Source: an uncultured delta proteobacterium (GTDB taxonomy: Bacteria > Desulfobacterota > Binatia > Binatales > Binataceae). From it: DNA of 64,000 nucleotides. The translations under genes were made by a program, and so were the position numbers. Below the pieces are notes generated by a model. The model saw only the letters and a program-made list of their open reading frames with translations. It made no database searches and had not been told where the DNA came from. Position 1 is the stretch's first letter. The number at the start of each line of letters is the position of its first letter. The stretch covers positions 1,248,001 through 1,312,000 of the forward strand of contig CAVQEQ010000001.1 in assembly GCA_963711565.1 (NCBI GenBank). Direction: 5' to 3'. Positions 1 through 18,300 of this stretch are shown piece after piece.

Positions 1-625
1 TCAGTACGTCGCCGCGATGCAGGATGCCGGTAGCCGGGCGCTGCTCCAGCGCCGGCCGCGAATAGAATACCATCTGCGTGCCGCGCATCGTAAACTCGTA
101 GTTGTGTTCTCTCGCGATCCGATGTAGGAACCCAAGGTCCGATTCCTGATTCTGCCGAAGGGCCATGAAACTCACGTCTGGGTTGACGGCCTCACCGCTG
201 ACCGAGAATCCGTGCGCGGTCGCGATGGTCCGCGCCGCTTGAAGGAGCGTTTGACCATCGTAAGCTGTGGACTTCGGGGTGCGTATCGCGGGCGTGATAT
301 ATGCCGCGATGCATCGCAGGTGCACTGCATCGGGCGCGCCCTTAAGCTCGACTTCATCGACCTGAAAAGATGGGCACGGCGCCAATCTCTCATTACGGTA
401 GCCCATCGAGACATCAACCAGATCGCCGCGCTGCGGAAACCACGGCCCCTGCCATCGCTTATCGCGATCCTCAAGCTCGATTTCCAAGTCAGGCGCCGCG
501 CCGCCGGCGTGCGACGTATAGATGATCGAGAGCACCATCTTTTCGATCGCGCCGGTAATCCCTACGCCTCGATAGCTGACTGTCCAGGCGGGCGCGCGGA
601 CCGCGTATGTAGTGACGCCTGCCAT
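1..625 (-). CDS. Phage late control D / baseplate hub-like protein (partial, runs off left edge)
   Basis: Not in the ORF track. Hand translation from ATG at 625 (TGATG overlap with the tape measure stop) gives MAGVTTYAVRAPAWTVSYRGVGITGAIEKMVLSIIYTSHAGGAAPDLEIELEDRDKRWQGPWFPQRGDLVDVSMGY...FQVDEVELKGAPD...QNQESDLGFLHRIAREHNY, a typical gpD pattern (Q..ESD..FL.R.A). Confidence 0.8.
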   Translation of the reverse strand, partial: MAGVTTYAVRAPAWTVSYRGVGITGAIEKMVLSIIYTSHAGGAAPDLEIELEDRDKRWQGPWFPQRGDLVDVSMGYRNERLAPCPSFQVDEVELKGAPDAVHLRCIAAYITPAIRTPKSTAYDGQTLLQAARTIATAHGFSVSGEAVNPDVSFMALRQNQESDLGFLHRIAREHNYEFTMRGTQMVFYSRPALEQRPATGILHRGDVL

Positions 626-2604
626 CATTCAAGATCGGTTCGACTCTTTTCAGCGAGTCGCCGCTCTACCGCTTTCACAAGTTCATAGCGATGCTTTTCA
701 AACGCCGCCACAACCATTTTCTCAAGCGCCGAAGTATCCGATCCGACTGGAGCATTGATCGTAATCGGGGCGTTGATGATGATTCCGCCGCTAGCGCCAG
801 GCACGCCCGCGGCCATCGCGCCGCCCGCGCCCGCCGCGACGATAGTCGTGCTCGCGATCGCGGCGGCCGCGGCCGTCCGCCGTATCGCGGCGATCACCGG
901 CGAAGGCCGGATATGCTCAGCAACCGTTTCCGCAATTGTGATGTGCTCGCCGAGATGGCTCAGCGGGCCGACTTTGGGCGGCGAATGCCCCTCGAAGTAG
1001 CCCAGGATTCCGCTGCCGATTTTCTCGCACGCGGCCTTGATCGAATCCCAATGCTTATAAATCTCGACGCCGATTAGTCCGAACGGCCCCGCGATTCCCA
1101 TCAGCACCGCTTCGCCAACGGTTTTGGCCCAGCCCATCGTCCAGTTGCCGACGCTGGTGAAGATACTCATCACGCCCGACCACAGACCGGAAAAGAAAGA
1201 CTTGATTCCCGACCAATGCTCGTAAATTTCGTAGCCGGCGACCGCGAGTGCAGCCGCGCCGACAACAACCAATCCCATCGGGCTGATCATCGCCCCCAAA
1301 ATCGTTGGGACGGCCTTCAAAATCGTCGGAACATAGCTCAGCGCCTTCATCGCGTTGCCGATACCGATGGTCGCCATGCCGAACGTCGAGAGCGCGGACG
1401 CTGCGCCGCTGAGGCCCACCCCGGCAACCGATAAACCGATAACCAGACCCTTGGTGGCCCACGAATATTTGTCGCTCGCCGCGGTCGCGCCCTGGATCAA
1501 AGTGGTCAGCTCTCCAAATTTGGTCGAAAACCACGGCAGCGCCGGCGACGCCATCGAGTCGTAGAGGTTGTCGAGATTCTGATGCATCTTATCGAGCTGA
1601 TCGGCCGCGTCGCCCGTTGCCGTCGTGAAACCAATGCCCAGCGCGCCAGCCGCACTCGCGCCTCTGCGTGCGGCTGCGGTAACCTTGTCCAGGCTGTCCA
1701 GATATTTGATCAGTCCGCCCGGATCGCCGATGCCCATCTCCTTCAGCGCTTCGATCTTCTCCATCGAGGGCATGGCCGCGAGGTTTTCGCGTAGCTGTGT
1801 CAGTCCGCCGATAATTCCTTTTTGCCAATCGACGCCGCTTTTACCGCTGTCAACCAGATCCTTAATCATCGAGGCGAACCTGATCGCGCCCCGTCCGCCG
1901 CCGCCGAACTGCTGGCTGGCTTCGCCGGCCAGTGCGAGCAACTCCGAAAATGAAGTATGGGTTTCCGCAGCCGTACCGCCCAACTGCCCTACCGCCTGGG
2001 CCAATTGCTGTGTGCTTTCTTTTCCAACGTTGAACTGCGTCGTCATTTTGAAAAATTGATCGCCCGCAGTCTGTGCATCGACGCCGAAATTGGTAGACGC
2101 AGCACCAAACAAGTTCGCCGCCGCCGCACCATCGACGCCGAACCTGGTGAGCATCGCCGCCGAGTCCTCAGCGGCCATGGCTTTGTTCGTATCCTGGAAG
2201 ATCGCGCGCATCCGCGTGAAGCCGGAGACCCACTCCTCGGCCGTGGCGCCCGCATGCGTACCTGAAAAAGCGACGGCATGTTCCTTCAGCTTCGCGAGTT
2301 CTCCACCGGCGAGGCCCGTCATCGCGGCCGTAGTCGCGAGCGATTTCTGCATCGCAAATGCGGGCTCGCTGATCGCGTCGCTCAGCTCGTGCAGATGGTC
2401 CGCGCCGTCCTTCATCAGAGCCGCGTCGAGCGAGATCCGCTCGCCGAACCTGGTCAGACCCTCCCCTGCCGCATCGATCTTGCCGGCAAACTCCTGAACT
2501 TTATCTCCGAGGTTCAGGAATCCGCCGCCGAACGAGCTGAGCTTGTCGCTCAGCTGATCGATCGCCTTGAACTCGACGCCATAGGTGATCATTTTGTCGG
2601 CCAT
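625..2604 (-). CDS. Phage tail tape measure protein
   Basis: 659 aa and Ala/Gly-rich. N-terminal F.AID..S motif, W-spaced repeats (IYEHWSGIKSFFSGLWSGV, IYKHWDSIK), and the HSPPKVGPLS motif typical of P2/Mu-type TMPs. Confidence 0.88.
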   Translation of the reverse strand: MADKMITYGVEFKAIDQLSDKLSSFGGGFLNLGDKVQEFAGKIDAAGEGLTRFGERISLDAALMKDGADHLHELSDAISEPAFAMQKSLATTAAMTGLAGGELAKLKEHAVAFSGTHAGATAEEWVSGFTRMRAIFQDTNKAMAAEDSAAMLTRFGVDGAAAANLFGAASTNFGVDAQTAGDQFFKMTTQFNVGKESTQQLAQAVGQLGGTAAETHTSFSELLALAGEASQQFGGGGRGAIRFASMIKDLVDSGKSGVDWQKGIIGGLTQLRENLAAMPSMEKIEALKEMGIGDPGGLIKYLDSLDKVTAAARRGASAAGALGIGFTTATGDAADQLDKMHQNLDNLYDSMASPALPWFSTKFGELTTLIQGATAASDKYSWATKGLVIGLSVAGVGLSGAASALSTFGMATIGIGNAMKALSYVPTILKAVPTILGAMISPMGLVVVGAAALAVAGYEIYEHWSGIKSFFSGLWSGVMSIFTSVGNWTMGWAKTVGEAVLMGIAGPFGLIGVEIYKHWDSIKAACEKIGSGILGYFEGHSPPKVGPLSHLGEHITIAETVAEHIRPSPVIAAIRRTAAAAAIASTTIVAAGAGGAMAAGVPGASGGIIINAPITINAPVGSDTSALEKMVVAAFEKHRYELVKAVERRLAEKSRTDLE

Positions 2605-2617
2605 CGGACTTTGACTC

Positions 2618-2908
2618 CTATCGGATCGCGTCCTTGCGGAACTCTTCGCGCATCGCGTGGAGCTGACGCGCCAACTCCGCGATCTCCTCGTCAGTCGGCA
2701 GACGCGACATCAGCCCATGCATTCCCTCTCGAAACACCTGAGCGTGGACCGCCTCAACTTCCGGCGAAAACTCCATCTCTCCGATCGCCTCGATCGTTCC
2801 GAGGATAAGATTCATCGGCCGGCGAAAGCCCGACTCGACGCGCGCCGCCATCTCGTCCATAACCTCGGCGAGCGGCCCATGATTTTTCTTTTTTCCCGGC
2901 TTCCCCAC
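2618..2908 (-). CDS. Hypothetical phage protein
   Basis: 96-aa ORF co-oriented with the operon, GAGG upstream, ends 13 bp before the TMP start. Confidence 0.55.
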   Translation of the reverse strand: MGKPGKKKNHGPLAEVMDEMAARVESGFRRPMNLILGTIEAIGEMEFSPEVEAVHAQVFREGMHGLMSRLPTDEEIAELARQLHAMREEFRKDAIR

Positions 2909-3143
2909 CCCTCACCTCGTCCTAGCCGTGATTCACGGCCACAGAGCGCGCCGCAAGCGCGGCGATCGCTATTCCTGAGAGTCCTTCAAACAAAGCGCGC
3001 GCGCTTTGCTGGCGGCCCGTGCCGCCCCGTTTCGTCGGCGCGGCGACCTCACACCCGTCGAAGCCGTTAGTAACGGGCACAGCGCCCGTCGCAAGCGCGG
3101 CGCGAGCCATCCGCGCCGCGAGTCTCCCTAAAGAAAATAAGGT

Positions 3144-3233
3144 GCTGGCGGCGCGTGCGACTACGGGAGGAGTTGTCCCGAAGCCGCCAGCCGCCCAAGG
3201 CGATGCGGTGATATGAGTCCGCACGCCGCCAGC
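3144..3233 (-). ncRNA. Candidate structured RNA module 1 (four-way junction)
   Basis: Closing stem GCTGGCGGCG/CGCCGCCAGC with three internal hairpins. Near-duplicate of 3253-3339 with compensatory changes. Confidence 0.5.
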
Positions 3234-3252
3234 GAGTCGAATGTGAGGAAAT

Positions 3253-3339
3253 GCTGGCGGCGCGGGCGACTTTGGAGGAGTAGTCCAAAGTCCATCCGCC
3301 GCCCAAGGCGATGCAGTGACACCTCCGCATGCCGCCAGC
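3253..3339 (-). ncRNA. Candidate structured RNA module 2 (four-way junction)
   Basis: Same closing stem and internal hairpins as 3144-3233. Stem CGGGA/TCCCG is replaced by TTGGA/TCCAA with pairing kept. Confidence 0.5.
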
Positions 3340-3567
3340 GAGTCTAAAAACAGATGCGCGCGCCGCCGGCGAACCGGAACGTCGGACGGCGCGCTCAGCG
3401 CGCCGCGACCTTTCGACGCGCGCAAGATTGGGATGCCGGCGGGAAGATGAGATGCGCAGCGCCGACGGCATTGCACCATGCGCCACGTATCGCGAGGCGG
3501 AGAACCTACTACTAGAACCCCCCCCGCATCCCGCCGGCAAGCAAATCATTTTTTTGCGGCGTTCCGA

Positions 3568-3975
3568 CTACGGCAGTTCCAGAATGACCAGGCCCGTTTG
3601 CGTATCCGGCGTGCAGCTCGCGCTCGCCGTGATGAAGCTGTACGGACCGCTCGGAACGATCGAATCGTGAACGTCCCAACTCTTCGATGCGCCTGCCGCC
3701 AATAAATAGCCCTGGCCGAACACCGCCGCAGTGCCGCGAAACTGAATGGTCACAGCGCTCGCGCACTGGTTCTGAATCTCCAGATGCTCCACGAATTGAG
3801 GCTGCGAAAGCGACGAATTAACTGAGACGGCGGTCGCGCTGGCCGCGATCGGCGTGTACACGCCAGTCGTCAGCGCAGTCGGATTTGCGAAAGCAAATGC
3901 TTGAGCTGCCGAGAGCAGCATCGCCGCTACTACTGCGAAAACTGTTTTCCTCATCCTCATCCCCATCATCCTCAC
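3568..3975 (-). CDS. Secreted beta-rich hypothetical protein
   Basis: Signal peptide (RKTVFAVVAAMLLSAAQAFA), two Cys, beta-strand-rich mature part. Confidence 0.65.
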   Translation of the reverse strand: MRMMGMRMRKTVFAVVAAMLLSAAQAFAFANPTALTTGVYTPIAASATAVSVNSSLSQPQFVEHLEIQNQCASAVTIQFRGTAAVFGQGYLLAAGASKSWDVHDSIVPSGPYSFITASASCTPDTQTGLVILELP

Positions 3976-4014
3976 TTTATTGCCGCCGATTTTTCTGGCG
4001 GAGTTTTCAGACCG

Positions 4015-4500
4015 TCAAACTTTGCGACCCTCGCGATCGTCGCGTTCCGGGTAGGGCGGCACCATTCGTTCCAGGAGCTGCATGACATAGAGCGCTCCGT
4101 CGAGAAGCCGATCGTACATCTCGCCGTCGTCGCTATTAGTGTCGCAGTCCTTCAGTGCGGAGATGGCTGCGTCTCGAAGTTCGAGATCCGAAGCGCTTTC
4201 CGCAAACTTGGGATCGGCGTCATAGGCGGCCTTGTGCGCGCGATCAACTTCCTGATGCGATAGAGATAGTCCCGGTTTACCCACACTCGCCCGCGCGGTC
4301 TCCCCGCCAGACTGTCGAGCGAGCGCCGCGGCAAATGCGCGACGGCCTATGCCGAAAGACCGCGCTACGGCCAATTCATCTCGCGTCAAGCCGTGGGTAT
4401 TTTCTGATCGCGAGAGGCGCGCGACCCTCGTCGCTAGCTGTTCGGGCGGGATTCCGAAGGTCGCCGCGATCTTCTTTTGGTCCGCGGTAAGAGTACTCAT
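4015..4500 (-). CDS. Hypothetical protein with two Mu scaffold-like (LT..E..VA..FGI) motifs
   Basis: AGGAG RBS before ATG at 4500. Motifs LTADQKKIAATFGIPPEQL and LTRDELAVARSFGIGRRAF. Confidence 0.65.
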   Translation of the reverse strand: MSTLTADQKKIAATFGIPPEQLATRVARLSRSENTHGLTRDELAVARSFGIGRRAFAAALARQSGGETARASVGKPGLSLSHQEVDRAHKAAYDADPKFAESASDLELRDAAISALKDCDTNSDDGEMYDRLLDGALYVMQLLERMVPPYPERDDREGRKV

Positions 4501-4628
4501 CAAATTCTCCTGATTGCGGCTGCCCCGAGCCGTCCTCGTTTCATGGGCTGTCAGCGGACTGAGGACTCCGTCGTAACAGGTCTCGATCTCATCTGGCCGA
4601 AATTCCCTCATCTCTCAAAATTCCGCGC

Positions 4629-5249
4629 TTACCACTGGCGGTGATGCGTGCCCTCGCCGCGCTCGCGCCGAGCGTCGTTATCCCGTTCGTGCTGAATCGC
4701 CGCGGCTTCCCGTTTTTCGAGCCCTTCGATGTGCGCGTTGGTCAGGATGCCGGGAACCTCTCTGCGCGTGACTTCGCGGTCGCCCAGCTTCACGGAAGAG
4801 ACCCGAATAGCGCTGATCCGATCTCCATCTCGGAAAAACTTCTTGAGCCCGTCGATCTCCTCTGCGGTCCAACTCGCCTGCTGAAATACAGGATGAGTTC
4901 GATACAACTCTTCCTGGAAGCTGGGCGCCTTTTCCGGGATGCTCAGTCGCCGGCAAGCCTCTTCCATCTCGAAGACCTTGCTCCGAAGGGTGTTTAGATC
5001 GGCACCGTTTCGGATCAGATCGTCGATCATCTTTGAGTGCGAAGCCATGTTGCCCACGGCGGCGCGTTCCCGCTCAGAAGTCGGAAACTTCAGCGCCGCG
5101 ATGCGCGCCCGCGCCGCTTTGACGATCTCGATCGGATCGCGCGCTTGTCGGAGCCGCTCAGTTGCTTCATCGCAATCCGTCGCCATCGCCTTGACCAGAG
5201 TTCCGTTCTCCGGAGCCTGAGCCTCGTTGTTCTCTTCCGCCGCCTTCAT
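4629..5249 (-). CDS. Hypothetical phage protein
   Basis: 206-aa ORF, ATGA overlap with the upstream GemA stop, GAGG RBS. Confidence 0.65.
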   Translation of the reverse strand: MKAAEENNEAQAPENGTLVKAMATDCDEATERLRQARDPIEIVKAARARIAALKFPTSERERAAVGNMASHSKMIDDLIRNGADLNTLRSKVFEMEEACRRLSIPEKAPSFQEELYRTHPVFQQASWTAEEIDGLKKFFRDGDRISAIRVSSVKLGDREVTRREVPGILTNAHIEGLEKREAAAIQHERDNDARRERGEGTHHRQW

Positions 5250-6115
5250 AGGTCACCTCTCGTCGAATTTTTATTCCGCGGGCCGCGAACCGCGCCCGGA
5301 GTTTCTGTCTCGTCCGCGTCGGCCTTCAACGCCGAGCGCATGCCTTCTGCGATCGTCCGATCCACTTCCGCGACGCGCCCGACGAGCCAAAACAGCTCGC
5401 CCCGAACCTTCTTAAAGTCCCATTTCAAAAGAGCTTGCCGGGCTCTCTCCCCAAACTCGCGCACCAGGTCCGCGACTTGCGCCGCGATCTGCGCGTCGGC
5501 GAAATTCTGCGCGTCGAGAAGCACCAGGACGTTGCGGATTCCCTCGATCGGAGTCCCGGCTTCACCGACCAGGCGCATCGCGTCGAATACGCCGGCCTTC
5601 ACGATCGCGCTCGCGGGGATCGCGACCGCGGCCGGCTGGTTCTCCGCGATCGGGTGTTTGATCAGCCACTTTTTGCGCCAGCCCTTGAGCGCTTCGATCA
5701 CCTTGTTCGCATCAGTCGCGTCGAGCCACTGAAGCCTCTCGACGCCGGTGATTTTCCGCACGAATTTTTGCAGCCATCGTCCGGTCGAATTGGCCTTGAC
5801 CGCGCCGACGCGCTCCAGCTCATATGCACAAACGAGCAATTTCTTGAGATGCTGCGCGCCCGGAGATTTCGGATCGATGCGAATCCAATCGTCCTCGCGA
5901 GCGCGCGGCGGTGCCGAGTTAAATCCCTTGCGCGCAAATTCGTCGAGCAGCGCGCGTCGCTCCGCCTCTGTCATGTTCGCCGACGAATCGGTGCGCCCTT
6001 TCGTGATACGCTCGATCATCATGCGATACGCTTCATCGTCCAGGCAGAGCTGTTTTTTCGCGAGATGAATCTTCGCGAGTTCAGCCTGTCGGATTTTCTG
6101 CGGCGGCGTTCTCAT
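5246..6115 (-). CDS. gemA: GemA-like (Mu gp16/DUF1018) regulatory protein with C-terminal extension
   Basis: LAKIHLAKKQLCLDDEAYRMMIERITKGRTDSSANMT...FVRKITGVERLQWL...ANKVIEALKGW is the gp16/GemA signature. Start coupled to the AlpA-like stop. Confidence 0.85.
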   Translation of the reverse strand: MRTPPQKIRQAELAKIHLAKKQLCLDDEAYRMMIERITKGRTDSSANMTEAERRALLDEFARKGFNSAPPRAREDDWIRIDPKSPGAQHLKKLLVCAYELERVGAVKANSTGRWLQKFVRKITGVERLQWLDATDANKVIEALKGWRKKWLIKHPIAENQPAAVAIPASAIVKAGVFDAMRLVGEAGTPIEGIRNVLVLLDAQNFADAQIAAQVADLVREFGERARQALLKWDFKKVRGELFWLVGRVAEVDRTIAEGMRSALKADADETETPGAVRGPRNKNSTRGDL

Positions 6116-6363
6116 CACGGTTCTGAATCCTTGACCTGCTTGATCGTCGCTCCCGTCACTTCCCGCTCCGCCAGCCAAGCCAACACGCGCGCGCGCGAAT
6201 ATCGGACCACTGCTTTCGAGACCTGGAAGTAAGGCGGCCCCGATCCCTCGCGCCGCATACGCTTGAATGTTTCGTCCGCAACCCCTATGAGCCGCGCGCA
6301 CTCTTCCTGGGAAATGATCTCATCATTGAGCGATAGCGCCGGTCTGTTTGTTTCGTCCGACAT
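6115..6363 (-). CDS. AlpA/excisionase-like HTH DNA-binding protein
   Basis: IISQEECARLIGVADETFKRMRREGSGPPYFQVSKAVVRYSRARVLAWL is a HTH_17/AlpA pattern. Confidence 0.8.
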   Translation of the reverse strand: MSDETNRPALSLNDEIISQEECARLIGVADETFKRMRREGSGPPYFQVSKAVVRYSRARVLAWLAEREVTGATIKQVKDSEP

Positions 6364-6891
6364 TTAGCTCTTTGCCGTTTTCCGCGTTCGCGCGGCTACC
6401 CTCGGGCATGTCGTTTCCAGCAGCGCCAATGCGATCGATGCGCGTAGAATCAATTCCCCGCAAAGCTCCGATGATGGGACTTCGTCCTCGCCCACATGCC
6501 ACGTTAAGGCAGCACAACCCTCGATATATCGCGATCCGAGAGCGGTGGTCGGTGCGTTCCCAATCTCATAGAGGTTACGACTACAGTTTTCGTGAACTGA
6601 GAAGACCATTTCTTCTAAGAGCCGGCGCAGCTTGCTAAAAGCGTCGGTGGTATTCTGAGATGCCTTTCCGATCGAAATCGTGATCTGATCGCGCGCTGGG
6701 CACCATTGGTCTATGTGCCGAAAATGCCTCGCCGATCTGAGCACCGGCCATGCCGTCGCCCAAACGTCATCGTATTTGGCGCGAGCGACGATGAACGCTT
6801 GGAGCGCGGACCGCACTTTGCCGATAGTCGCCGGATCTAAAATGCTTTCCGGTTTGAAGAGCGGGGTTGTTTTTTGCTCGGCTTTTTTCAC
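6364..6891 (-). CDS. Hypothetical phage protein
   Basis: Likely GTG start at 6891 after GAGGAGG, overlapping the upstream stop. Abuts the AlpA-like start. Confidence 0.6.
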   Translation of the reverse strand: MKKAEQKTTPLFKPESILDPATIGKVRSALQAFIVARAKYDDVWATAWPVLRSARHFRHIDQWCPARDQITISIGKASQNTTDAFSKLRRLLEEMVFSVHENCSRNLYEIGNAPTTALGSRYIEGCAALTWHVGEDEVPSSELCGELILRASIALALLETTCPRVAARTRKTAKS

Positions 6892-7319
6892 GGCTGTCCT
6901 CCTCTCTGACGTTCCACGAACGCGCCCAATCGAGCGAGCCGTTTGTCGCATGAGACAATTTGTGCCGCGCACTCCGCGCGCAGATCGCGCAGCGCGGAGA
7001 TTTCTAAATTCGGGTCAAGCGTGAGCCCCTTCCTGCCAACCCTCGGAGCAAAAGGTCCGGTGTTGCGGATCAGCGCATAGACGCTGCCATCGCAGCCGCG
7101 CGCATGCTCGGCAACTCTCAGATAACCCGCGCGCGTCAAGTCCTGGAGGAAGCGCTCAGCCGCCTTGCGCCCCGCGATCTCGGCGACTTGAATCAGATCG
7201 CGAATGTGGAACTGCCGAAGGATGCGCATCGCGCGCCACATTCGTTCGCGCGCGGCGCTCGGCGCGCCGGCGAGATTCACGCCGGCGCCGCGTCCACGTT
7301 TATTTTTGACGGTTTCCAT
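6888..7319 (-). CDS. Winged-helix protein conserved downstream of the ATPase in B3/BcepMu-like transposable phages
   Basis: RERMWRAMRILRQF...YLQ-like...LTRAGYL...YALIRNTGPFAP motif; coupled to the ATPase stop. Confidence 0.7.
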   Translation of the reverse strand: METVKNKRGRGAGVNLAGAPSAARERMWRAMRILRQFHIRDLIQVAEIAGRKAAERFLQDLTRAGYLRVAEHARGCDGSVYALIRNTGPFAPRVGRKGLTLDPNLEISALRDLRAECAAQIVSCDKRLARLGAFVERQRGGQP

Positions 7320-8059
7320 CAGGCCGCCGCCGCCGCGAGATCAGCGCGCCGGTTGACTGGCGGCGGCGTCGAATCGTCCATCGGATAATCCGCCAGCGCG
7401 ATCTGCTTGAGCGCCCGCCTGCGGCAGAACGCTTCCACCGCCGCCAGCTCCTTGACGAACAGTCCGGCCGATCCGCGCGTCTTTTTGTGAAGCGCCTCGA
7501 TCAGGTCATCGCCGAGCCGCACTTCGGCCAGCTCGGTCGCGAGCAGCCTGCTATCGTCGAGCGTGGAACTCTTAAATTCTACTTCGCGGAGTATCCGCCG
7601 CTCGATTTGCTCACGCCGCTTTATTTTTCCGCGAAATTCCGCGGTACCGCCAATGAGGACAAGCGGAATCGCCGTCATGTCGTGAATGGCGCGCAGAGTC
7701 TCGACGAGATCCTTTTTCTCTACGATCCCGTCGGCTTCATCGACATAAATCGGCCGCGGCAGATCCGTCAGGCCGCGCACGATTGTCTCGTACATCGGCC
7801 GCAGTTCCCGCGATGGCTTTTCGCCCATCTCGCGGCAAATGTCGCTGAGCATCCAGCGCGGATTCCACAAATGAAGTGCCGTCAGAAAGATCGCGCCCTG
7901 CTTCAGAGCCTGATGCGCAGCGATGCAGGTCTTTCCTCTTCCGCTTCCGCTGCTATGAATCAGGATGATGCCCGGTAGCGATGGATCGCGCGCGATCGCC
8001 GCGGCGATGGCACCGATTCCCGCCTTGTAATTACTCGTCGCACAGATTTTTACCCGCAT
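7319..8059 (-). CDS. MuB-like AAA+ transposition ATPase
   Basis: Walker A (SGSGRGKT), Walker B (IYVDEAD), ETLRAIHD..IPLVLIG; directly after the transposase. Confidence 0.88.
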   Translation of the reverse strand: MRVKICATSNYKAGIGAIAAAIARDPSLPGIILIHSSGSGRGKTCIAAHQALKQGAIFLTALHLWNPRWMLSDICREMGEKPSRELRPMYETIVRGLTDLPRPIYVDEADGIVEKKDLVETLRAIHDMTAIPLVLIGGTAEFRGKIKRREQIERRILREVEFKSSTLDDSRLLATELAEVRLGDDLIEALHKKTRGSAGLFVKELAAVEAFCRRRALKQIALADYPMDDSTPPPVNRRADLAAAAA

Positions 8060-10113
8060 TTTTTGACCTCCTCGGTCCGTTCGTTACTTGAAGCCGGGAC
8101 GCGCTCAGCCCACCGCATCGCGCGAAAGTCGCTCGTCATTTCGTAGCCCAAAGCCCAACTGTCGGGCGTATTTTTGTAATGCGCGAGAAAGCGCTGTTCA
8201 CGCAAAGTCAACGCCCGGTGCTCGCGCCGAATCGCGATCCAGAGCTGATCACATTCGTCTTCGCTCAACTGCAATTCTCGGATTTCACGCCGCCGCTCTA
8301 TTTCCTGTAGCGCGATATTTCCATCGCGCAGTACCTCGTCGCTATGCGGTTCCGGTTCGGCCGGCGCGTCGAGCGCTTGCAGCGCCGCCGCCGCCGCCGC
8401 GATACCCGGTGAGCGATGCGGCAATGCAGTGATTTCAGTTCCGGGCGCGGGAAGCTTAACGGCGTCGCGCGCAGCGCACGATTCGATAATGTCGCGGTAT
8501 GTGGTTTCAGGCCGGTGCTTTCGCTTGAGCGCGCGCAGCTCGTCCATGCCCTCGCGCATCTTCCTGTTCTGATCCTGCTTGGCCGCTATCGCCATCACCT
8601 GCCGGTCGAGGCCGGCGGACTCAGGATTGATCGCGACGCAGATAAACTTCGTGCCGTCGCCGCTGAAGATGATCAGCTTGCCCTGGTCGCGCGTGCGCAC
8701 GTACTGAACGCCCTGTTCGATATACGCTTCGAGTGCGTTGCCCTCGTCCCAATAGAATGCGTTATCGACACGGATACCCTTCTTGCCGACCGTCGCGGTG
8801 CCATCTTCGCCCAGCAGCACGTCGAGCAGCCGCTCGTCGGCCACGCGCCGAACCTGTCCGCGCCGATCCGCCTCGGCAAAAACCTCGTTGGGAGTCCGCC
8901 CGCCGAGCCCCGAATGCTTTTTGTTGCCGTAAACATGCTCCAGCCACTTGTCGAGCAGGTCTTGCAGCTCGGGCGCGGTCAGCTCGATTCGATAGAGCCG
9001 CCGCATATTGCGCCGCGCGCCGCGGCCGGGCGCATAGCCGGCGCGCTCGCGGATTTTCGACGCCTCTTTCACATCGTGGCCGATGTAGCCGGGCAGGTTG
9101 ACGAAAAAAGAGTGGAGCACCGTGCCGATTCCGCGCTCGATGTGTGGTTTTCGCCATCCCGAATAAGCTGGCGTCGCCGGCCACGCGATCCCGAGCCGCG
9201 CGATTCCGCGCTGCGTGCGCGCCGAGACGAACCCGGCGCCGTTGTCGTGCGAAATCTCGTCGGGAACGCCGCGCAGCGAAATCCCTTTGATCACCATCTC
9301 CGCAACCGCGTTAGAAGACTCAACCGGCGCCAGATGGGCGGTAATCACGCGCGAGCAAACGTCGATCTGCCCCATCACGTGCAGCCTGCCGCCCGGCGTC
9401 TCGACCGTGCCGAGCACATAAGAGTCGGCCGGCGTGCCGTCTATCTCCCAAAGCTGATTTACCCGCGTGATATTCGCGTCGGCATCGCCGATCGCGAGCA
9501 TGTGGCGGTTTTTCCAGCCGGCAGGGTCTTCGATCCGCACATACAGCGAATGGTTCTGCTGCTTCCAATCGCGGATGAACTTCTGCACCGCGTCGATGCT
9601 CGGAATCCGATCGTTTGGAAACCGAGCCTCGATTCCTTCGAGCACGAATTGCGCGTTAACCTTCGGGTTGTGCGCGATCTGGGCGATCACGAACTCACGC
9701 ATCAAGGAATTGCGCGCGATGATCGAGTCGCCGCGCCGCTTGCCATAGCCCGGCACCAGGCCGGCAATGCCGGACTTCTCGAATCGGCGCCAAGCCTTTT
9801 GCAGCGTCGGCCATTCGATGCTCTGCCAGAGTTCGCGCGCGTTGGCACTCACTTCGATCTGACCGTGATTAAAGCGCTCGCAGAAATCCTTGCCCGCAGC
9901 GTTCAGCGCCTTGCACGATCGCTTTCTGAACGCACGGAACGCCGCGACGATCTCCGCCATCGCCAGCGCGCGCGCGGCAATCTTCGTCGGAATACCATCG
10001 AGCGGATCGAGAGGAGCGAGCGGCGCGGCAACAACCGGCAGCGTGACAGCGCGCGCGTCGTCCGACAGCGCCGGCCGTTCCACGAGCTGCACGCTGCGCG
10101 CCGCCTCACTCAT
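8050..10113 (-). CDS. MuA-like DDE transposase
   Basis: 687 aa. Catalytic motifs LWEIDGTPAD, HDNGAGF and KPHIERGIG, plus YGNKKHSGLGGRTP and the Mu-transposase C-terminal TVGKKGIRVDNAFY. Confidence 0.92.
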   Translation of the reverse strand: MSEAARSVQLVERPALSDDARAVTLPVVAAPLAPLDPLDGIPTKIAARALAMAEIVAAFRAFRKRSCKALNAAGKDFCERFNHGQIEVSANARELWQSIEWPTLQKAWRRFEKSGIAGLVPGYGKRRGDSIIARNSLMREFVIAQIAHNPKVNAQFVLEGIEARFPNDRIPSIDAVQKFIRDWKQQNHSLYVRIEDPAGWKNRHMLAIGDADANITRVNQLWEIDGTPADSYVLGTVETPGGRLHVMGQIDVCSRVITAHLAPVESSNAVAEMVIKGISLRGVPDEISHDNGAGFVSARTQRGIARLGIAWPATPAYSGWRKPHIERGIGTVLHSFFVNLPGYIGHDVKEASKIRERAGYAPGRGARRNMRRLYRIELTAPELQDLLDKWLEHVYGNKKHSGLGGRTPNEVFAEADRRGQVRRVADERLLDVLLGEDGTATVGKKGIRVDNAFYWDEGNALEAYIEQGVQYVRTRDQGKLIIFSGDGTKFICVAINPESAGLDRQVMAIAAKQDQNRKMREGMDELRALKRKHRPETTYRDIIESCAARDAVKLPAPGTEITALPHRSPGIAAAAAALQALDAPAEPEPHSDEVLRDGNIALQEIERRREIRELQLSEDECDQLWIAIRREHRALTLREQRFLAHYKNTPDSWALGYEMTSDFRAMRWAERVPASSNERTEEVKKCG

Positions 10114-10427
10114 ACGGCCGCCTCGCGCGCCGGTTCTTTCAACACCTTCCGCGCTCGCCGTTCAGCGCGGAGCCGTTCGCGCTCGGGCCACAATTCCTCC
10201 GGCGTTCGGCCGATCGCGGCGGCGACTATGCGTTCTGCGATCGGCCAAGGCCGGTCGAAAACATGACTGAGTGTGCTCGGATGCCAGCCGCGAGATTTTG
10301 CTAGAGCTGCGAGAGAAGTGCCGCGCCGGCGAAGTTCAGCTAGAATGGCGAAGCGATCTATTCCGCTTGACGCGGAAACCGCGAGGCGCTTAGATCGCTC
10401 TGCTCGCTTTGGTCGATGCCGTTCCAT
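10110..10427 (-). CDS. ner: Ner/Nlp-family transcriptional regulator
   Basis: ILAELRRRGTSLAALAKSRGWHPSTLSHVFDRPWPIAERIVAAAIGRTPEELWPER is the Ner signature; ATGA overlap with the transposase. Confidence 0.9.
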   Translation of the reverse strand: MERHRPKRAERSKRLAVSASSGIDRFAILAELRRRGTSLAALAKSRGWHPSTLSHVFDRPWPIAERIVAAAIGRTPEELWPERERLRAERRARKVLKEPAREAAV

Positions 10428-10467
10428 TGGCAGAATATATTCGTCTGAAATCAGGAGATTGTCAACT

Positions 10468-10974
10468 ATGAAGAGTAGACAAGCTCCCTCATCGAAAGAT
10501 CGGGCCGCGCCTTCCGATCCCATGTCCGACCGAATCGAATATTGCTTTCGCGTGGCCGGCGGCGTGCGCGCGGTTTCTAAAGCCACCGATCTGGTTGAAT
10601 CCCTGCTCTACCGTTACCGGAAACCGGGCGCGTCAAGGCGAACCGACGTATTGTCGCTGATCGCCAAGGCGGCCAATGTGAGCGAGGCGTGGCTTCTAAC
10701 CGGCATCGAGACCGATCCATCGAAGAGCACTTCCGCACGGCCGAAATATCATTCCCTGGCGGATTTGCCCTATCGCATGTCGGCTGAATATGAGATGGAC
10801 GCCGCCGCCCGACGTGAGTTGATCTTTGAGCGAGAGGGCGGCGCCGAGTTCAAGGACGCAACCCTTCGAGCGCTCGAAGAAGAGCTGCACCGTCTCAAAG
10901 GAAGGATCGAGGTTTTGGAATCGCAATTGGCCGCCAGCAGACCGCGCGGCGGAAAAAAAGCTGCACGCGCGTAA
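10468..10974 (+). CDS. Phage repressor (Cro/CI-type HTH)
   Basis: Divergent from ner, AGGAG RBS, HTH ending IAKAANVSEAWLLTG, C-terminal coiled coil. Start could be 10521. Confidence 0.8.
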   Translation: MKSRQAPSSKDRAAPSDPMSDRIEYCFRVAGGVRAVSKATDLVESLLYRYRKPGASRRTDVLSLIAKAANVSEAWLLTGIETDPSKSTSARPKYHSLADLPYRMSAEYEMDAAARRELIFEREGGAEFKDATLRALEEELHRLKGRIEVLESQLAASRPRGGKKAARA

Positions 10975-10989
10975 AAGAGGGTTCACGAA

Positions 10990-11328
10990 ATGGGGGCAAA
11001 AGCGTTCGCTCGACTATTGGTACTGATCGGCTTTGTCTCAATGGGCTGCTCGCACGGCAGCTTGCCGCACGATCGCCTCAACGGAACCTGGACCAGCGAC
11101 ATTATGACCATCACGATCGATTTCCCCGCCCACAAATATTCGGGCGTTGCGATGGGCGAGCCGTTTTCGCACTACCTGGACCTGGTGAGCGAAAACGCCA
11201 ACGTCGTGGTCTTCAAAGAGAGCGACGCAACCATCGTCTGCCAGATTCAGGACGACGGCAGCATTATGATCACCAAGCAGGGCTCCGAAGGCGGAATCCC
11301 TATGATCCTGCACCGCGCCAAAGACTAA
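10990..11328 (+). CDS. Lipoprotein (moron-like)
   Basis: Lipobox-like VSMGC after a hydrophobic stretch; LNGTW lipocalin-like start; GAGG RBS. Confidence 0.7.
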   Translation: MGAKAFARLLVLIGFVSMGCSHGSLPHDRLNGTWTSDIMTITIDFPAHKYSGVAMGEPFSHYLDLVSENANVVVFKESDATIVCQIQDDGSIMITKQGSEGGIPMILHRAKD

Positions 11329-11336
11329 CCGGAAAA

Positions 11337-11750
11337 ATCAAAGTTCCCTTCCGAAACTTTGATCATTGTTCGCCTAGGGAACAATGATCCCGAACCCCGC
11401 CAGAATACCGGCCCGGCATTTTGATTTTCGCGATCACAGTCGTCCTCGACGACTATGATTTTAGCCGCGCCAAGGCGCGCCTAGACCAGGCGTTCGCGTA
11501 TGTCGCGGACGACGGCATGCGAAATCAAAGTCGTGCTCGACGATTTTGATCTTTCCGAGATCAAACTCGCGGACGACGAGTTTGATCGGCCGGCCCCTTT
11601 TCAAGATCGCTAGAGACGATCTTGAAATCACCCTCGCGCTCGACGAGGGTGATTTCCTCCGGTTACGTCGCAGGCTCATGTCGTAGGCGACGACATGATA
11701 AGTGTCGTGGCCCCGCGACACTTCCATCATGTTCCCGAAGGGAACATGAG
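11337..11750. repeat. Array of about 10 imperfect palindromes, consensus ATCA-N3-TCG-N7-CGA-N3'-TGAT
   Basis: 27-bp units start at 11337, 11362, 11433, 11524, 11560, 11600 and 11627. 25-bp variants start at 11675 and 11726, and related hairpins at 11494 and 11700. Confidence 0.9.
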
Positions 11751-11906
11751 AAGTCATAAGCCCCACTAATTTATCGAGCCGCGCAGACGATCCGGTTTTC
11801 AGGGTTGTGAGCGCTCATTGGCCCTTCGCGACGAGGCGCGGGCGCTTTTCGGTCAAAAGTGCCCTAACTATCCGATTTTGCTAGCGAATCATATCAAATG
11901 GAAAAA

Positions 11907-12178
11907 ACCGCTCTTAGTTGGATCTAATTCCTAACTAGGGATGCGTTAGCGCGACACGGCGCGTCGTGGCGCTATCAGTTTCCAGACTGGCCCGATTAGA
12001 CGAATCCTACTCCGAACTTAGCCCCTGCCCCACGGCTTTGCGATGAGCGCTCGCGTCAGAAAACCCCGTCCAGACGCGGGTTTCGATGCGTCCGTCGTCC
12101 CATGATGTCCCCCCCAGTCCCACGAAATCCCGCGAATTGCCTCGGAAGAGTTTAGATCCAACCATGAGCGGTGTCACA
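11907..12178. repeat. Element terminus with inverted 21-bp putative transposase-binding sites
   Basis: ACCGCTCTTAGTTGGATCTAA (+, 11907-11927) matches ACCGCTCATGGTTGGATCTAA (-, 12172-12152) at 19/21. The outer site starts 6 bp inside a TG...CA-type end. Confidence 0.75.
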
Positions 12179-12510: not shown

Positions 12511-15300
12511 TTACCGCTCTTTCAGTTCGGCCAAGAAGACGGCCGACCTGCCAACCTCCAGGAATTCCTTAGCATCGAGGGTATCGAAAAGCTGGATAGT
12601 CTTGGCCACGAGGCCGGTCCATCCAGTCTGATGGCTTGCGCCGAGCCCGGCGCCGTTGTCGCCGTGGAAGTACTCGTAGAACAGAATATAGTCGCGCCAA
12701 TGCGGGTCGGACTGAAATTTCTCGCTGCCCCCGTACACAGGACGACGGCCATCTTTGTCACGCAGAAAGGTAGCGCCAAGCCTACGGGTTATCTCGTGGC
12801 TCACTTGAAAAAGATTCATTAGTTGGCCGGAACCAGTAGGGCATTCGATCTTAAAGTTGTCGCCGTAATAGAGATAGAACTGCAATAGTGCCCGAATAAC
12901 TATGATATTCACCGGAAACCACACTGGGCCTCGCCAGTTTGAGTTACCGCCAAACATGCCGGTGTTCGACTCCGCCGGCAAGTAGTCTACGCGATACTCC
13001 CGGTCACCGACGTTCAGGATATAGGGATGATGCTCGTGAAACTTCGATAGAGAACGAATGCCGGTAGGACCCAGAAATTCGTTCTCATCGAGCACTCTAG
13101 AAAGGATTCGGCGCAAACGCTCGGGACCAACCAAAGCTATGATGCCGCGCTCGTAGATTCCGAAATGCCCGGGCCCGGTAGGATGAATGTAATTCCATAG
13201 CTCGGGCATCCGCTGGCGCCGTCTATCCAAGAGAGTCATCGCCGACGGCATCCGTTCGCGTTGCCATCGCTCGACGACAGTGGTTGCGCAGAGCGGCAGC
13301 AGCCCTACCATCGATCGCACCTTGAGCCGTTTGGCGCTGCCGTCCGGGAGTCGCAAGAGATCGTAGTAGAAGCCGTCTTCCTCGTCCCACATCCCGTCGT
13401 CGCCGGGACGGTTCATAGCTGTAGCGATGTAAAGGAAGTGCTCGAGGAACTTGACCACCATATCTTCGGAGGTGTGGTCGTAGGCAAGGAGTTCTATCGC
13501 CAGTTCTGCCATGTTTTGGCTGTACAGCGCCATCCATGCGGTGCCGTCGGCCTGCTCGAGGCTGCCTCCAGTGGGCAAAGGTGCGCTCCGATCGAAAATC
13601 CCGATATTGTCGAGACCCAGGAAACCACCTTCGAAAACATTCTTGCCGAACCGGTCCTTGCGATTGATCCACCAAGTGAAATTCAAGAGGAGCTTTTCAA
13701 AACACCACTTGAGGAAATCGATATCAGTTTCGGCCCCCAGGGCCTGCTCCGTGCGATGCAGGAATAGAGTCGCCCAGGCATGGACCGGCGGGTTAACATC
13801 GCTGAAGTTCCACTCGTAGGCGGGAATCTGGCCGTTGGGGTGCATATATAACCCCTTGAGCATGAGACGTATCTGCTGACGGGCGAACTCCGGGTCCACG
13901 GTCGAAAGCGCGACGGTATGAAAGGCGAGGTCCCAAGCCGCATACCATGGATACTCCCATTTGTCGGGCATCGAGATGACGTCGTCGTTGAGCATGTGGT
14001 ACCACTCCTGGTTGCGGGAGTGCCGGATTCCGTGTTTCAACGGATTGGCGCGATGTTCGTCCAACCACTTATCCGCGTCCAGGTAGTAGAACTGCTTAGT
14101 CCACAGCATTCCAGCGAGCGCTTGACGCATCACATTGGCCGCGTCCGGGGACGCCGCAGCCGGGATCACCGACCGGTAGAACTCGTCGGCCTCGTCCAGG
14201 CGGGCTGCAAAGATCTCATCAAAATTCTTCCCGAACGAAAAAGCATCTTTCCCGCCGCCCTTTGACTGTTCCCCGAGCGCTTGACCAGTCAAGCGTAATC
14301 GCGCCGTTGCCGATTGCCCAGAGTTTATCGTGAATCGGTAGCGCGCCGCGGCTTTGGTCCCGCGCAGGTCCGGATTCACCGTTGGTTTCCCATTCGTCAC
14401 GAAGTCGTTGATGCCGTCTTTCACATAGGGGCAGGCGTTGGGATATTCGGGAAAGAGGCGCTGGTTGTTGGTCTCGTTCTCGGTAAAGAGAAGCGGCACC
14501 TCACCTTCGCAATACAGATGGTACTTTCCGAGTTCGCGATGCTCAGCGGCTATGGCTGTGCTACCAGACGGAGCTTCGATCCACTTGAGAGTCGGTCGCT
14601 CGGCGGGTCTAGAAATCCATGATGACCAGTCATTGCGGAACCAGAGAGTCGGCAACAAATACAGTGGCGCCGGTTCGGGTCCCCGGTTCCACACCGTTAT
14701 CCTTATTAGAATGTCGTCGGGGGCGGCCTTGGCATATTCTACAAAAATGTCGAAATAACGGTCGCCGTCAAAGATTCCCGTGTCCAGAAGCTCATACTCT
14801 GGGTCGTTGCGTGTGCGGCGCGCATTGACTTTTATCAGGTCGCCGTAAGGATAGGCCGCTTGGGGATACTTGTAGAGGTACTTCATGTACGAGTGTGTCG
14901 GCGTACTGTCAAGGTAGAAGTAGTACTCTTTCACGTCCTCGCCATGGTTTCCCTCGCTGTTCGTGAGTCCGAAGAGCCGCTCCTTTAAGATAGGGTCCTT
15001 GCCGTTCCATAGAGCTAGTGCAAAGCACAGCGCTTGCTTGTCGTCGGAGAGACCTGCCAGGCCGTCCTCGCCCCATCGGTAGGCACGCGAGCGGGCCTGA
15101 TCATGGCTGAAGTAGTTCCAAGCGTCGCCCGTGTCGCTATAGTCTTCGCGTACGGTGCCCCACTGGCGCTCGCTAAGGTAAGGACCCCACCGCTTCCACG
15201 GCGTTTGGTGAATGCGCTCCTGGTAGAGACGTTCTCGCTCGGCGGGCATGTTGGTCTCGCTCCTCAGGATCCGGTTTTGCTTAGGTGTCGCGTGCGCCAA
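12511..15300 (-). CDS. MGH1-like / GH63-like glucosidase
   Basis: WKRWGPYLSERQWGTVREDYS, SMPDKWEYPWYAAWDLAFH and EYFHGDNGAGLGASHQTGWTGLVA motifs. Start may be 15249. Confidence 0.88.
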   Translation of the reverse strand: MAHATPKQNRILRSETNMPAERERLYQERIHQTPWKRWGPYLSERQWGTVREDYSDTGDAWNYFSHDQARSRAYRWGEDGLAGLSDDKQALCFALALWNGKDPILKERLFGLTNSEGNHGEDVKEYYFYLDSTPTHSYMKYLYKYPQAAYPYGDLIKVNARRTRNDPEYELLDTGIFDGDRYFDIFVEYAKAAPDDILIRITVWNRGPEPAPLYLLPTLWFRNDWSSWISRPAERPTLKWIEAPSGSTAIAAEHRELGKYHLYCEGEVPLLFTENETNNQRLFPEYPNACPYVKDGINDFVTNGKPTVNPDLRGTKAAARYRFTINSGQSATARLRLTGQALGEQSKGGGKDAFSFGKNFDEIFAARLDEADEFYRSVIPAAASPDAANVMRQALAGMLWTKQFYYLDADKWLDEHRANPLKHGIRHSRNQEWYHMLNDDVISMPDKWEYPWYAAWDLAFHTVALSTVDPEFARQQIRLMLKGLYMHPNGQIPAYEWNFSDVNPPVHAWATLFLHRTEQALGAETDIDFLKWCFEKLLLNFTWWINRKDRFGKNVFEGGFLGLDNIGIFDRSAPLPTGGSLEQADGTAWMALYSQNMAELAIELLAYDHTSEDMVVKFLEHFLYIATAMNRPGDDGMWDEEDGFYYDLLRLPDGSAKRLKVRSMVGLLPLCATTVVERWQRERMPSAMTLLDRRRQRMPELWNYIHPTGPGHFGIYERGIIALVGPERLRRILSRVLDENEFLGPTGIRSLSKFHEHHPYILNVGDREYRVDYLPAESNTGMFGGNSNWRGPVWFPVNIIVIRALLQFYLYYGDNFKIECPTGSGQLMNLFQVSHEITRRLGATFLRDKDGRRPVYGGSEKFQSDPHWRDYILFYEYFHGDNGAGLGASHQTGWTGLVAKTIQLFDTLDAKEFLEVGRSAVFLAELKER

Positions 15301-15323
15301 CTCTATGGAGACGAACTAGGTCG

Positions 15324-18300
15324 TCAATTCGAGGGCACAGCTGGCCCCTGACGCGGAGCGCCGGGTGCTACTGCTGGCGCTGATAGCGGTCCGAAGATGT
15401 GGCGGACGGAGACAAAGAACACCGGCACGAAGGGGATCGCAAGAAGAGTCGAAGCGAGCATTCCGCCGAAGACTACCGTACCTAATGACTGCTGGCTCGC
15501 GGCGCCGGCGCCGGTGGCGGTCAACAGCGGAACCACGCCGAGAATGAACGCGATGGACGTCATTAGTATCGGCCGAAAGCGTCGGCGGGTTGCTTCCACG
15601 GCGGCTTCCATGGTTCCCATCCCTTGCGCCGCAAGATCACGAGCAAACTCGACAATAAGGATCGCGTTCTTCGCTGCCAGCGCGATCATAAGGACCAGTC
15701 CTATCTGCGTGTACAGATCCACAGGAAACTTCCGGATAACCAACGCTACGAGGATACCTATGAGAGCCGTCGGTACTACCAGGATAACTGCGATAGGATC
15801 GGTCCAGCTCTCGTACTGCGCCGCGAGGACCAGATAGACGAGCGTGATCGACAGTGCAAAGATAAAGTAAGCCTGACTCCCGGTTTGTTCTTCCTGATAG
15901 GCAAGTCCCGTCCATTCGTAACTCATACCTGCAGGCAGCGTTTCATCGGCGAAGTTCGCCATCATGCTTAGTGCCTGTCCGGAGCTGTACGAGGGCATCG
16001 GAATTCCGGTCAGGATAGCAGCGGGATAAAGGTTGTAGCGCGTGACCAGCTCGGAGCCCAGCATCCTGCGGACCGAAAGCAGCGCACCCAGGGGCACCAT
16101 CTGGCCTTCCTTGTTCATCACGTCGAGATTTTGTATGTCGGCCAGTGCGCGACGAGAGTCGGCCTCGGCCTGAACGCGAACCTGAAAGGCCTGGTTGAAT
16201 TTGTTGAACTGATTTACGTAGGTCGAGCCGAGATAGGTTTGCAGAGTCTCGGAAACATCGTTGACCGGAACACCAAGCGACTCGGCCATCGTTCGATCGA
16301 TGTTGAGATAGATCTGCGGACTGTTATCGCTGAAGGTGGTAAAGCCGAGGCGCAGAAAGCCATCCACGCTCTGCGCCCGATCGAGCAACACGTGAGTGGC
16401 CTTCTGCAATTCGCGGAGTCCATTGCTGGCGCGATCCTCGACTACCATCTGAAATCCGAACGCCGTTCCCAGGCCGGGAATCGGAGACGGCGGCATCACA
16501 TCGAATGAAGCTGTGCGAATAGACTGAACCTTTTCCTGAATATGTTTAATTATTCCGGCCTGGGTCAGACCTGCTGGACGCTTGCTCCAGTCATCATAGA
16601 TGCAGAACACCGTGACGTAGTTCGAAACGTTGGCGGAGTCCAGCGCCGAGAATCCACCCATCGTAACCCAGCCCTTGATGCCGGGACTCTCTTTCAATAT
16701 CGCGTTGATTCGGTCGGAGACCTCTCTTACCCGGGGCTGAGCGGATCCCTCGGGTAGTTCAGCCGAAATGATGCAGTATCCCTGGTCTTCGAGCGGCAGC
16801 AAGGAAGTCGGGTAGATCGAGAAAGCAAATCCAACCAGGAACAATACGGCGAAGAACCCTGCTACCATCGTGAAAGGGCGAGCGACCATCCAGCTGACAA
16901 GTCCTATGTAGCGATCCTCGACGGCCGCAAACCCTCGATTGAACTCACTGTAAAACCAGTTGGGTTTGTAGTCCTTAGGCCTGGGTCTGAGATAGAGCGC
17001 ACACTGTGTGGGCTTGAGCGTGAGTGCGTTGGCAGCGCTGATAAGTGCGGTCGATGCGATCACCAGCGCGAACTGACGAAACATCTGTCCGGTGATACCG
17101 GGCAGGAAAGAAGCCGGCAAGAAGACTGAAGTAAGAACCAGGGTGACGCCAAGAACAGGGCCAGTGAGCTCGCCCATGGCTTTGATGGCCGAGTCCTTGG
17201 GACTGAGTCCTTCTTCTATGTAGTGCGTACAGTTCTCGACAATGACGATAGCGTCATCCACTACGATTCCGATCGCAAGGATCAAGGCGAACAGAGTCAT
17301 CAAGTTGACCGAAAAACCGAGCAATGCCATCGCCGCAAAAGCGCCTATTATCGTGACTGGTACGGTCGTAGCGGGAACCAGCATCGCGCGGAAGTTCTGA
17401 AGAAAAATTACGATGACGATCAGAACGAGGATGCCCGCCTCGCCCAGCGTCACATACACCGCGTGAATTGCCTGGCCAATGAAGACGGTGGTGTCATAGA
17501 GCGGAGTGTATTTGAGTCCTTCCGGGAAGGTGCTGCTCATCTTCGCCATCAGTGCGCGCACGGCGGACGCGACCTGCAGCGAATTTGCGCCGGGCAGCGC
17601 ATAGATCGCGATATGGCCTGCCTTTTTGCCGCTCAGATTGGAGAACAGCGTGAACTGCTGCTGGCTCATCTCGATCTTTGCAACGTCTTTGAGCCGCACT
17701 ATCGAGGCAGTCTCGCTCGGTTGAGCGCTGTTAACGGTTTGTCCTGCCAGGGTCGGCGCAAGGCGACTTTTGATGATGATGTTTTCGAACTCTTTCGGAT
17801 CCGACAGGCGTCCCTGGGTGTTAACCGTGAACTGGAAGACCTGGTTCGATGGAACCGGCGGCCCACCTATCTGACCCGAGGCGACCTGGTTGTTTTGAGA
17901 CTGAATCGAGTTCTGTACATCGAGCACGGTCAGCCCGAAGGTTTTGAGCTTGTTGGGATCGAGCCAGATGCGCATGCTATAGGCACCGGCGCCTATGACC
18001 TTGACCTGACCTACCCCTGGGATGCGAGCGATAGGATTAACCAGGTTGATGGTCGCATAGTTGCTGAGGAAAGTTTCATCGAAGCGGTTGTCATCCGAGT
18101 AAAGACTCTCCATCAGCAGGATGTTGGTGGTGACTTCCTTGACGTTCACTCCCTGGTCCTTCACGGGCGCAGGCAGTTCCGAGAGCGATCCGTTGACCGC
18201 GTTCTGGACCAGCGCGAGCGAGGTGTCGAGATCGGTTCCGATCGTGAAGGAGACGGTCAGCGTATAACTTCCGTCGCTGCCGCTGGTGGATTGCATGTAG

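Follow-up and report, generated by a model that had tools for sequence, protein, structure and literature searches.

The CI RNA of P4, an integrase satellite and not a transposable one, is a structured RNA of about 80 nt that is encoded in a satellite operon, presents two short pairing segments and provides immunity by acting in cis on its own leader. The cuckoo/CcsR RNAs are chromosomal, consist of simple hairpins with an invariant loop and bind many Shine-Dalgarno (SD) sequences. In the C4 RNA, as outlined in PMC5320573, one loop occludes a ribosome-binding site (RBS) and the other confers specificity, and the motifs itemised in PMC2864571 include both C4 and c4-a1b1. The account given of SviR in PMC13595925 presents it as a small RNA of PLE, a satellite of Vibrio cholerae that makes its own scaffold and tape-measure proteins. 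Here we describe two tandem RNA-like units in a 64,000-nt stretch of DNA (the window) from an uncultured member of the Binataceae. They belong to a structured module with swappable loops that is real, conserved and apparently undescribed: a search of the literature found no description of the module RNA or of transposable Mu-like satellites in this group, and motif catalogues outside Rfam may list the RNA.

Two folded units within a Mu-like element

Both units lie on the minus strand exactly where an earlier reading of the sequence alone had placed them (Table 1). Each is predicted to fold into a four-way junction in which a 9-bp closing stem leads into hairpin 1, then a mini-hairpin and finally the long hairpin 2, with folding energies of -51.0 kcal/mol for unit 1 (z -4.65) and -53.6 kcal/mol for unit 2 (z -4.21), and in neither case was any of 200 shuffled sequences equally stable. 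The 650-nt non-coding stretch that holds them also folds strongly overall (z -7.0, 20 shuffles). The units are 80% identical to each other over 99 nt (E 5e-16), and no third copy was found across the 4.84 Mb host genome. The loop of hairpin 1 (loop 1) occupies positions 3324-3317 in unit 1 and 3218-3209 in unit 2, while the loop of hairpin 2 (loop 2) lies at 3283-3277, with an anti-SD core that extends into the stem, and at 3175-3169, which contains the core. Beside loop 2, two compensatory pairs match the description given by the sequence-only reading. Its preference for the minus strand is only slight within the window (-51.0 versus -48.9 kcal/mol for unit 1; -53.6 versus -53.3 kcal/mol for unit 2, plus-strand z -4.38) but is upheld by the six other units tested, all of which have better energy and z on the operon-sense strand, and by the stem changes, as the one-sided ones turn G-C into G-U when read on the minus (operon-sense) strand.

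Table 1. Features of the Mu-like element and its RNA cluster, in window coordinates
Feature	Positions	Strand	Remarks
Mu-like element	1..12178	-	13.3 kb, G000:C1:1246879-1260178; right end and Mor gene outside the window
Repressor	10273..10974	+	
Ner-like winged HTH	10110..10586	-	
MuA-like transposase	8050..10113	-	rve, Mu-transpos_C
MuB-like AAA ATPase	7319..8059	-	
GemA-family protein	5246..6301	-	
Helical marker protein of the element family	4015..4503	-	possibly scaffold-like
Small protein encoded just upstream of the RNA cluster	3568..3975	-	
Module A	3434..3539	-	closing stem and two hairpins, the first variable; z -3.6; kept here in related elements
Module B	3356..3424	-	closing stem, variable hairpin, small hairpin, then U-rich linker; z -2.4, 5/200 shuffles
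Module C unit 1	3253..3339	-	87 nt; closing stem, hairpin 1, mini-hairpin 3310-3300, hairpin 2
Module C unit 2	3144..3233	-	90 nt
Module D copy 1	3056..3119	-	hairpins; weak folding signal, z -0.2
Module D copy 2	2918..2964	-	81% like copy 1; z -1.75
Tape-measure protein	625..2604	-	659 aa
gpD-like tail protein	2..628	-	runs off the window

The surrounding element is delimited by intact terminal inverted repeats 13.3 kb apart and a 7-bp target duplication. Its genes run in the order repressor, Ner, MuA, MuB, HTH proteins, GemA, two unknown ORFs and a small virion-type protein, followed by the RNA cluster, a 96-aa ORF, the tape measure, the gpD-like protein and Mor. The helical marker protein matches weakly to 23 columns of a protease/scaffold C-terminus (E 0.046); it has no match in the Atlas, and its middling structural model (pLDDT 63) gave no fold match. 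A 58% homologue of the small protein next to the RNA cluster is encoded among head/neck genes in the Mu-like virion cluster of L327; in two related elements (G034 and L080) a DUF2190 protein takes its place. The sequence-only reading had considered a guide role for the units; no candidate effector protein was identified in the element, in which no RNA-binding or nuclease family was found and several ORFs are unannotated. Beyond its last ORF, towards its left end, the element contains five imperfect 30-nt repeats (11334-11653), and similar repeats are present in G034 and G070. The glucosidase-like and RND efflux genes beside the element (12511-18527) recur at G000:C2:284000-288200, near a second element on contig C2.

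Conservation of the scaffold and exchange of the loops

The units are not a private duplication of the window lineage but a conserved folded module of related Mu-like elements, hereafter module C. Using a model built from three units, we found seven distinct module C units in six related Mu-like elements, always at the conserved position: besides the window, homologues occupy it in G003, which carries two copies identical to the window's pair, in G034, G070 and G376, and in the metagenome loci L080 and L081. Three further loci (L077-L079) repeat the G034 unit, and the element in G016 holds a diverged eighth candidate (18 bits, fold z -6.2). In L082, L083 and G380 the neighbouring modules are present and module C is absent. 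In line with the co-occurrence with MuA-like genes that the sequence-only reading had raised, the module is conserved in homologous MuA-bearing elements; the duplication of the unit is restricted to the G000/G003 lineage.

Across the seven units, 97% of the cells at 20 core pairs of the scaffold are paired, versus 28-62% in slid-partner controls. Thirteen of these pairs are invariant and three vary on both sides; formal covariation is weak because 24 of 500 shuffles reach as many two-sided changes. Of the covariation measures computed on the core, three were reached by 18-28 of 500 shuffles and a fourth by 82 of 500. RNAalifold arrived at the same structure, and 6 of its 26 consensus pairs change on both sides. 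Although the sequences of the inner stem of hairpin 2 defy alignment, the stem re-forms in every unit.

Wider searches yielded no further loop variants from DNA contigs. In 151 family genomes, model R2 matched nothing strongly apart from the units on which it was trained (next best 28 bits); it had no match in 150 other genomes of the phylum and nothing above 21 bits among loci of helper-type or second-class elements. Pattern scans of IMG/VR for the scaffold returned 48 and 46 stretches with no genuine unit among them, the module A pattern returned a single IMG/VR stretch that is not a module, and the five stretches from a GTDB pattern scan comprised two with known units and three within coding sequence; INPHARED phages gave no match. 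A complete Mu-like prophage contains a three-way junction (L230:4200-4298, plus strand; z -4.8, 18.9 bits with R2) with a pyrimidine-rich loop, which falls within the linker-coding part of its MuA gene.

Both loops vary among the seven units while the scaffold stays. The anti-SD loop that the sequence-only reading took to be constant is indeed shared by the two window copies, but across the homologues the core is kept in five of seven distinct units (units 1 and 2, L080, L081 and G376), in these despite a replaced stem. The units of G034 and G070 lack it and have a different loop 1 in common. The 3' tail of the host 16S rRNA contains the same core as loop 2, and in units 1 and 2 part of the core is taken up by pairs of the predicted stem. 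Loop 1 of unit 2 contains a perfect anti-ATG triplet, and by eye positions 4-6 of loop 1 could pair with ATG or GTG in all four short-loop units with an anti-SD core, with G-U pairs required in unit 1, L081 and G376. Read 3' to 5', loop 2 followed by loop 1 would thus resemble an SD sequence, a spacer and a start codon in antisense order, the polarity being such that the start codon would face the 5' loop and the upstream SD the 3' loop. This pattern was spotted by eye after the idea had arisen and depends on wobble pairing; as the loops share a common ancestry, they are not independent instances of it. Module A of L083 shows an equivalent arrangement in other letters (anti-ATG loop 1, anti-SD loop 2), and L082 has the anti-ATG loop.

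Module C is itself the third module within a larger cluster of folded modules (Table 1), in which the order A, B, C, D with U-rich linkers between them is conserved among the elements; in the window lineage C is duplicated, as is part of D. Two diverged elements have an extra conserved folded module between A and B (L082:7720-7800 and L083:375-460). After module D, a small four-cysteine zinc-finger ORF is found at L080:9065-9220 and in the same place in G034, G070, G376, L081, L082 and G380; none was seen in the window element.

Capsid-less elements and a resident virion cluster

Six elements of 9.8-14.0 kb could be delimited, with varying sets of transposase, tape-measure, gpD-like and Mor genes. 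Their marker protein occurs in 8 of 401 genomes of the class, all of them Binataceae, and in at least seven metagenome loci; no relatives of it or of GemA were found in IMG/VR. When all six elements were compared with 29 proteins of the host virion cluster, the only matches were gpD, DUF2190 and Mor-like proteins, with none to terminase, portal, protease, major head, sheath, tube or baseplate. The elements are mobile, with intact ends, and combine some virion genes with the lack of terminase, portal, major capsid and sheath genes; because of this combination we consider these small capsid-less Mu-like elements to be probably satellites.

The virion cluster (G000:C4:1523480-1564000) encodes lysin, holin, terminase, portal, protease, DUF2190, major head, sheath, tube, baseplate and fibre proteins, has host genes inserted and contains only a short tape-measure-like ORF. 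Its major head gene is found in 120 of 165 family genomes, mostly in single copy, and in 46 of 46 other genomes of the genus, with an identity of 80-95% in nine of ten compared and 57% in one. GemA, which we took as the mark of mobile Mu-like elements, is present in 25 of the 165. We infer that this Mu-like cluster has been domesticated, and it could possibly specify a gene transfer agent (GTA) or a similar particle. Capsid-less Mu-like elements with their own tape-measure gene coexist with a virion cluster that most genomes of a common soil family possess, and the two form a candidate satellite-helper or satellite-GTA pair; no such pair was found described in the literature search.

Four of the six delimited elements were found near complete or partial tRNA-Ser genes, at distances of 37-203 nt from the 3' end and in either orientation (at G000:C1:1246680-1246879 and in G003, G034 and L080). 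Target duplications measure 7 bp in G000, G003 and L080 and 5 bp in G070 and G376, and G034 has none. Together these data suggest a biased target choice and a duplication length unusual for a Mu-type transposase. The idea that the modules guide homing was rejected because they are present with or without a nearby tRNA-Ser and their loops match element ends or the tRNA inconsistently. A second class of compact Mu-like elements was also encountered (G000:C2:291300-303500, which is L073, and L220, L221, L222, L225, L226, L233, L234 and L237). Several of these carry the C-terminal (scaffold) part of the protease together with a tape-measure or gpD gene; the fetched stretches contain no capsid gene and gave no strong module C match.

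Possible function and relation to known RNAs

Searches for pairing partners gave no outstanding site. Two-helix scoring of the host genome produced a smooth tail with many middling sites and no outlier, as did, again with no outlier, eight loop pairs scored against related DNA from prophages, clusters and elements (946 kb). A contiguous complement of unit 2 with at most three mismatches occurs at 14 places in 12 of 165 family genomes, versus 11 for the reversed control. The best contiguous host match of unit 2 (16/20), at the start of a 49-aa gene that is presumably pqqA-like, was no better than the control, and a 15/16 match to hairpin 2 of G376 has only a 10-codon ORF downstream. When the split complements were matched to IMG/VR, many of the sites coincided with the starts of ORFs of at least 50 aa (13 of 14 and 15 of 25), but the phages concerned are unrelated, with 26-65% GC, and an SD is built into the search pattern. 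A C4-style search in cis gave no site pair in the window element for either of its units and only scattered, chance-like pairs in the other elements; in P1, exact 7-8 nt sites lie within 90 nt of its C4.

The reading that we favour, and on which our judgement is evenly poised, is that the units are processed split-loop antisense RNAs that block translation initiation. They would be transcribed with the operon of the element and released as small RNAs at the U-rich linkers, whereupon loop 1 would pair with a start-codon region and loop 2 with the SD, silencing the target gene. Targets might be genes of a helper Mu-like phage, of the virion cluster or of rival elements, and the duplication in the window lineage may have added a second specificity. 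This proposal builds on what was observed: a conserved fold, a fixed scaffold on which both loops and the hairpin 2 stem are exchanged, a place among modules separated by U-rich linkers, and elements with the genes listed above. It is favoured by the kept scaffold, the anti-SD core retained despite the stem swap, the appropriate polarity, the possible pairing of loop 1 with start codons, the equivalent arrangement in module A of L083 and the precedent of C4; against it stand the lack of a target, the G034 and G070 units without an anti-SD core, the partial pairing of the core and the weak covariation. The missing target weakens the antisense reading without refuting it, because the segments are short and the helper perhaps lies outside the sample. 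A bolder and decidedly doubtful version holds that Mu-like satellites carry reprogrammable, protein-free antisense guides whose swapped or duplicated loops would spell the SD and start codon of helper genes, possibly those of the host's domesticated virion cluster, so that the tape-measure and head proteins of the satellite enter the particle.

The empty target searches would equally be expected if the modules acted in cis on the operon mRNA, where they would attenuate, stabilise or help to process it and so adjust the level of the tape-measure, gpD and Mor message relative to that of the early genes. The modules lie between early or head-related and tail or Mor genes in all six elements, and in most homologues a U-run comes directly after the strong stem that closes off modules B and C. 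We nevertheless hold action in cis to be unlikely: it needs neither two exchangeable loops nor a retained anti-SD core, a terminator scan limited to simple hairpins found no minus-strand site in the window cluster, and in G034 the cluster is followed by neither a tape-measure nor a gpD gene. It is also rather unlikely that the units are protein-binding or structural RNAs, such as decoys that bind a nuclease or RNA-binding protein of the host or components used in virion assembly, with the loops as recognition tags. One loop 1 sequence does recur in G034, G070, the diverged G016 unit and, less exactly, module A of G380, whatever the scaffold, and short-loop units keep the first and last A of loop 1. 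Short loop-loop complementarity, judged by eye, is possible in some units but is not kept across them, and among the annotated ORFs of the element none belongs to an RNA-binding or nuclease family.

That the units are broad translation dampers which bind many SD sequences in the manner of the cuckoo/CcsR RNAs, with loop 1 adding little specificity, would fit both the anti-SD core in five of seven units and the many middling sites in the host genome; we regard it as improbable, as each unit has a single anti-SD loop, which is partly buried, two units have none and no Rfam match to a cuckoo family was obtained. Least credible is the view that GC-rich DNA underwent a neutral tandem duplication, or that the feature serves transposition as a DNA structure. 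The limitation of the duplication to the G000/G003 lineage and the complementarity of 8 nt of loop 1 of unit 1 to the left end of the element speak for it, but the fold conserved in diverged homologues, the changes of the G-U type and the strand bias largely refute it, and by eye the match between loop and end is not repeated in other elements.

No strong match to a known family emerged from Rfam at E <= 1 or E <= 5, as the proposal of novelty in the sequence-only reading demanded: window positions 1-10000 gave nothing at E <= 1, and 10.7 kb of homologous loci gave four weak, unrelated matches, all below gathering scores. Mu-gpT-DE and other Rfam phage motifs had no match at gathering score, and ARAGORN found no tRNA in the window, the units belonging to neither tRNA nor tmRNA. 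The C4 model (RF01695, clan CL00128) had no match in any of five genomes, its P1 control scoring 68.8 bits. Because both the C4 model and the in-cis target test fail, module C is not a member of the C4 family. The claim of an unrecognised, C4-like family with a scaffold and a variable loop holds as to structure, the lack of an Rfam match and C4 as the closest analogy, but requires amendment in that loop 2 varies too and the units are part of a larger module cluster.

Several described systems share traits with module C. Like the cuckoo/CcsR RNAs of Alphaproteobacteria, it is tandem and modular with anti-SD-type loops; unlike them, it has a variable second loop, lacks an Rfam match and does not belong to that group. 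SviR, as described in PMC13595925, is likewise a small RNA of a satellite with its own tape measure, but is a single RNA rather than a cluster of modules with swappable loops, and there is no evidence of homology. The P4 CI RNA has a similar size, a satellite operon and two short segments in common with the units, which have no Rfam match. The resemblance is closest to the C4 RNAs of P1 and P7 (RF01695; c4-a1b1, RF03163), which, according to PMC5320573, the P1 annotation and the C4 consensus, are likewise tRNA-sized, closed by a stem, furnished with a mini-hairpin and two short single-stranded segments, and situated in a phage-type operon. The units have a closing stem and hairpins presenting two short pairing segments within the range of about 77-90 nt. 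In five of seven units the anti-SD core might serve as a segment complementary to an RBS, although no specific RBS was identified. They depart from C4 in the order of the helices, in that both segments are hairpin loops, in that the variable loop would meet a start codon downstream of the SD and not an upstream site, and in lacking the in-cis target pairs that P1 has within 90 nt. Should the antisense reading be true, module C would constitute a new family of phage-type regulatory RNAs whose specificity is altered by exchanging two loops on a fixed scaffold; it would offer a natural template for compact programmable translation blockers and would extend the principle of C4 and CI to transposable Mu-like elements.
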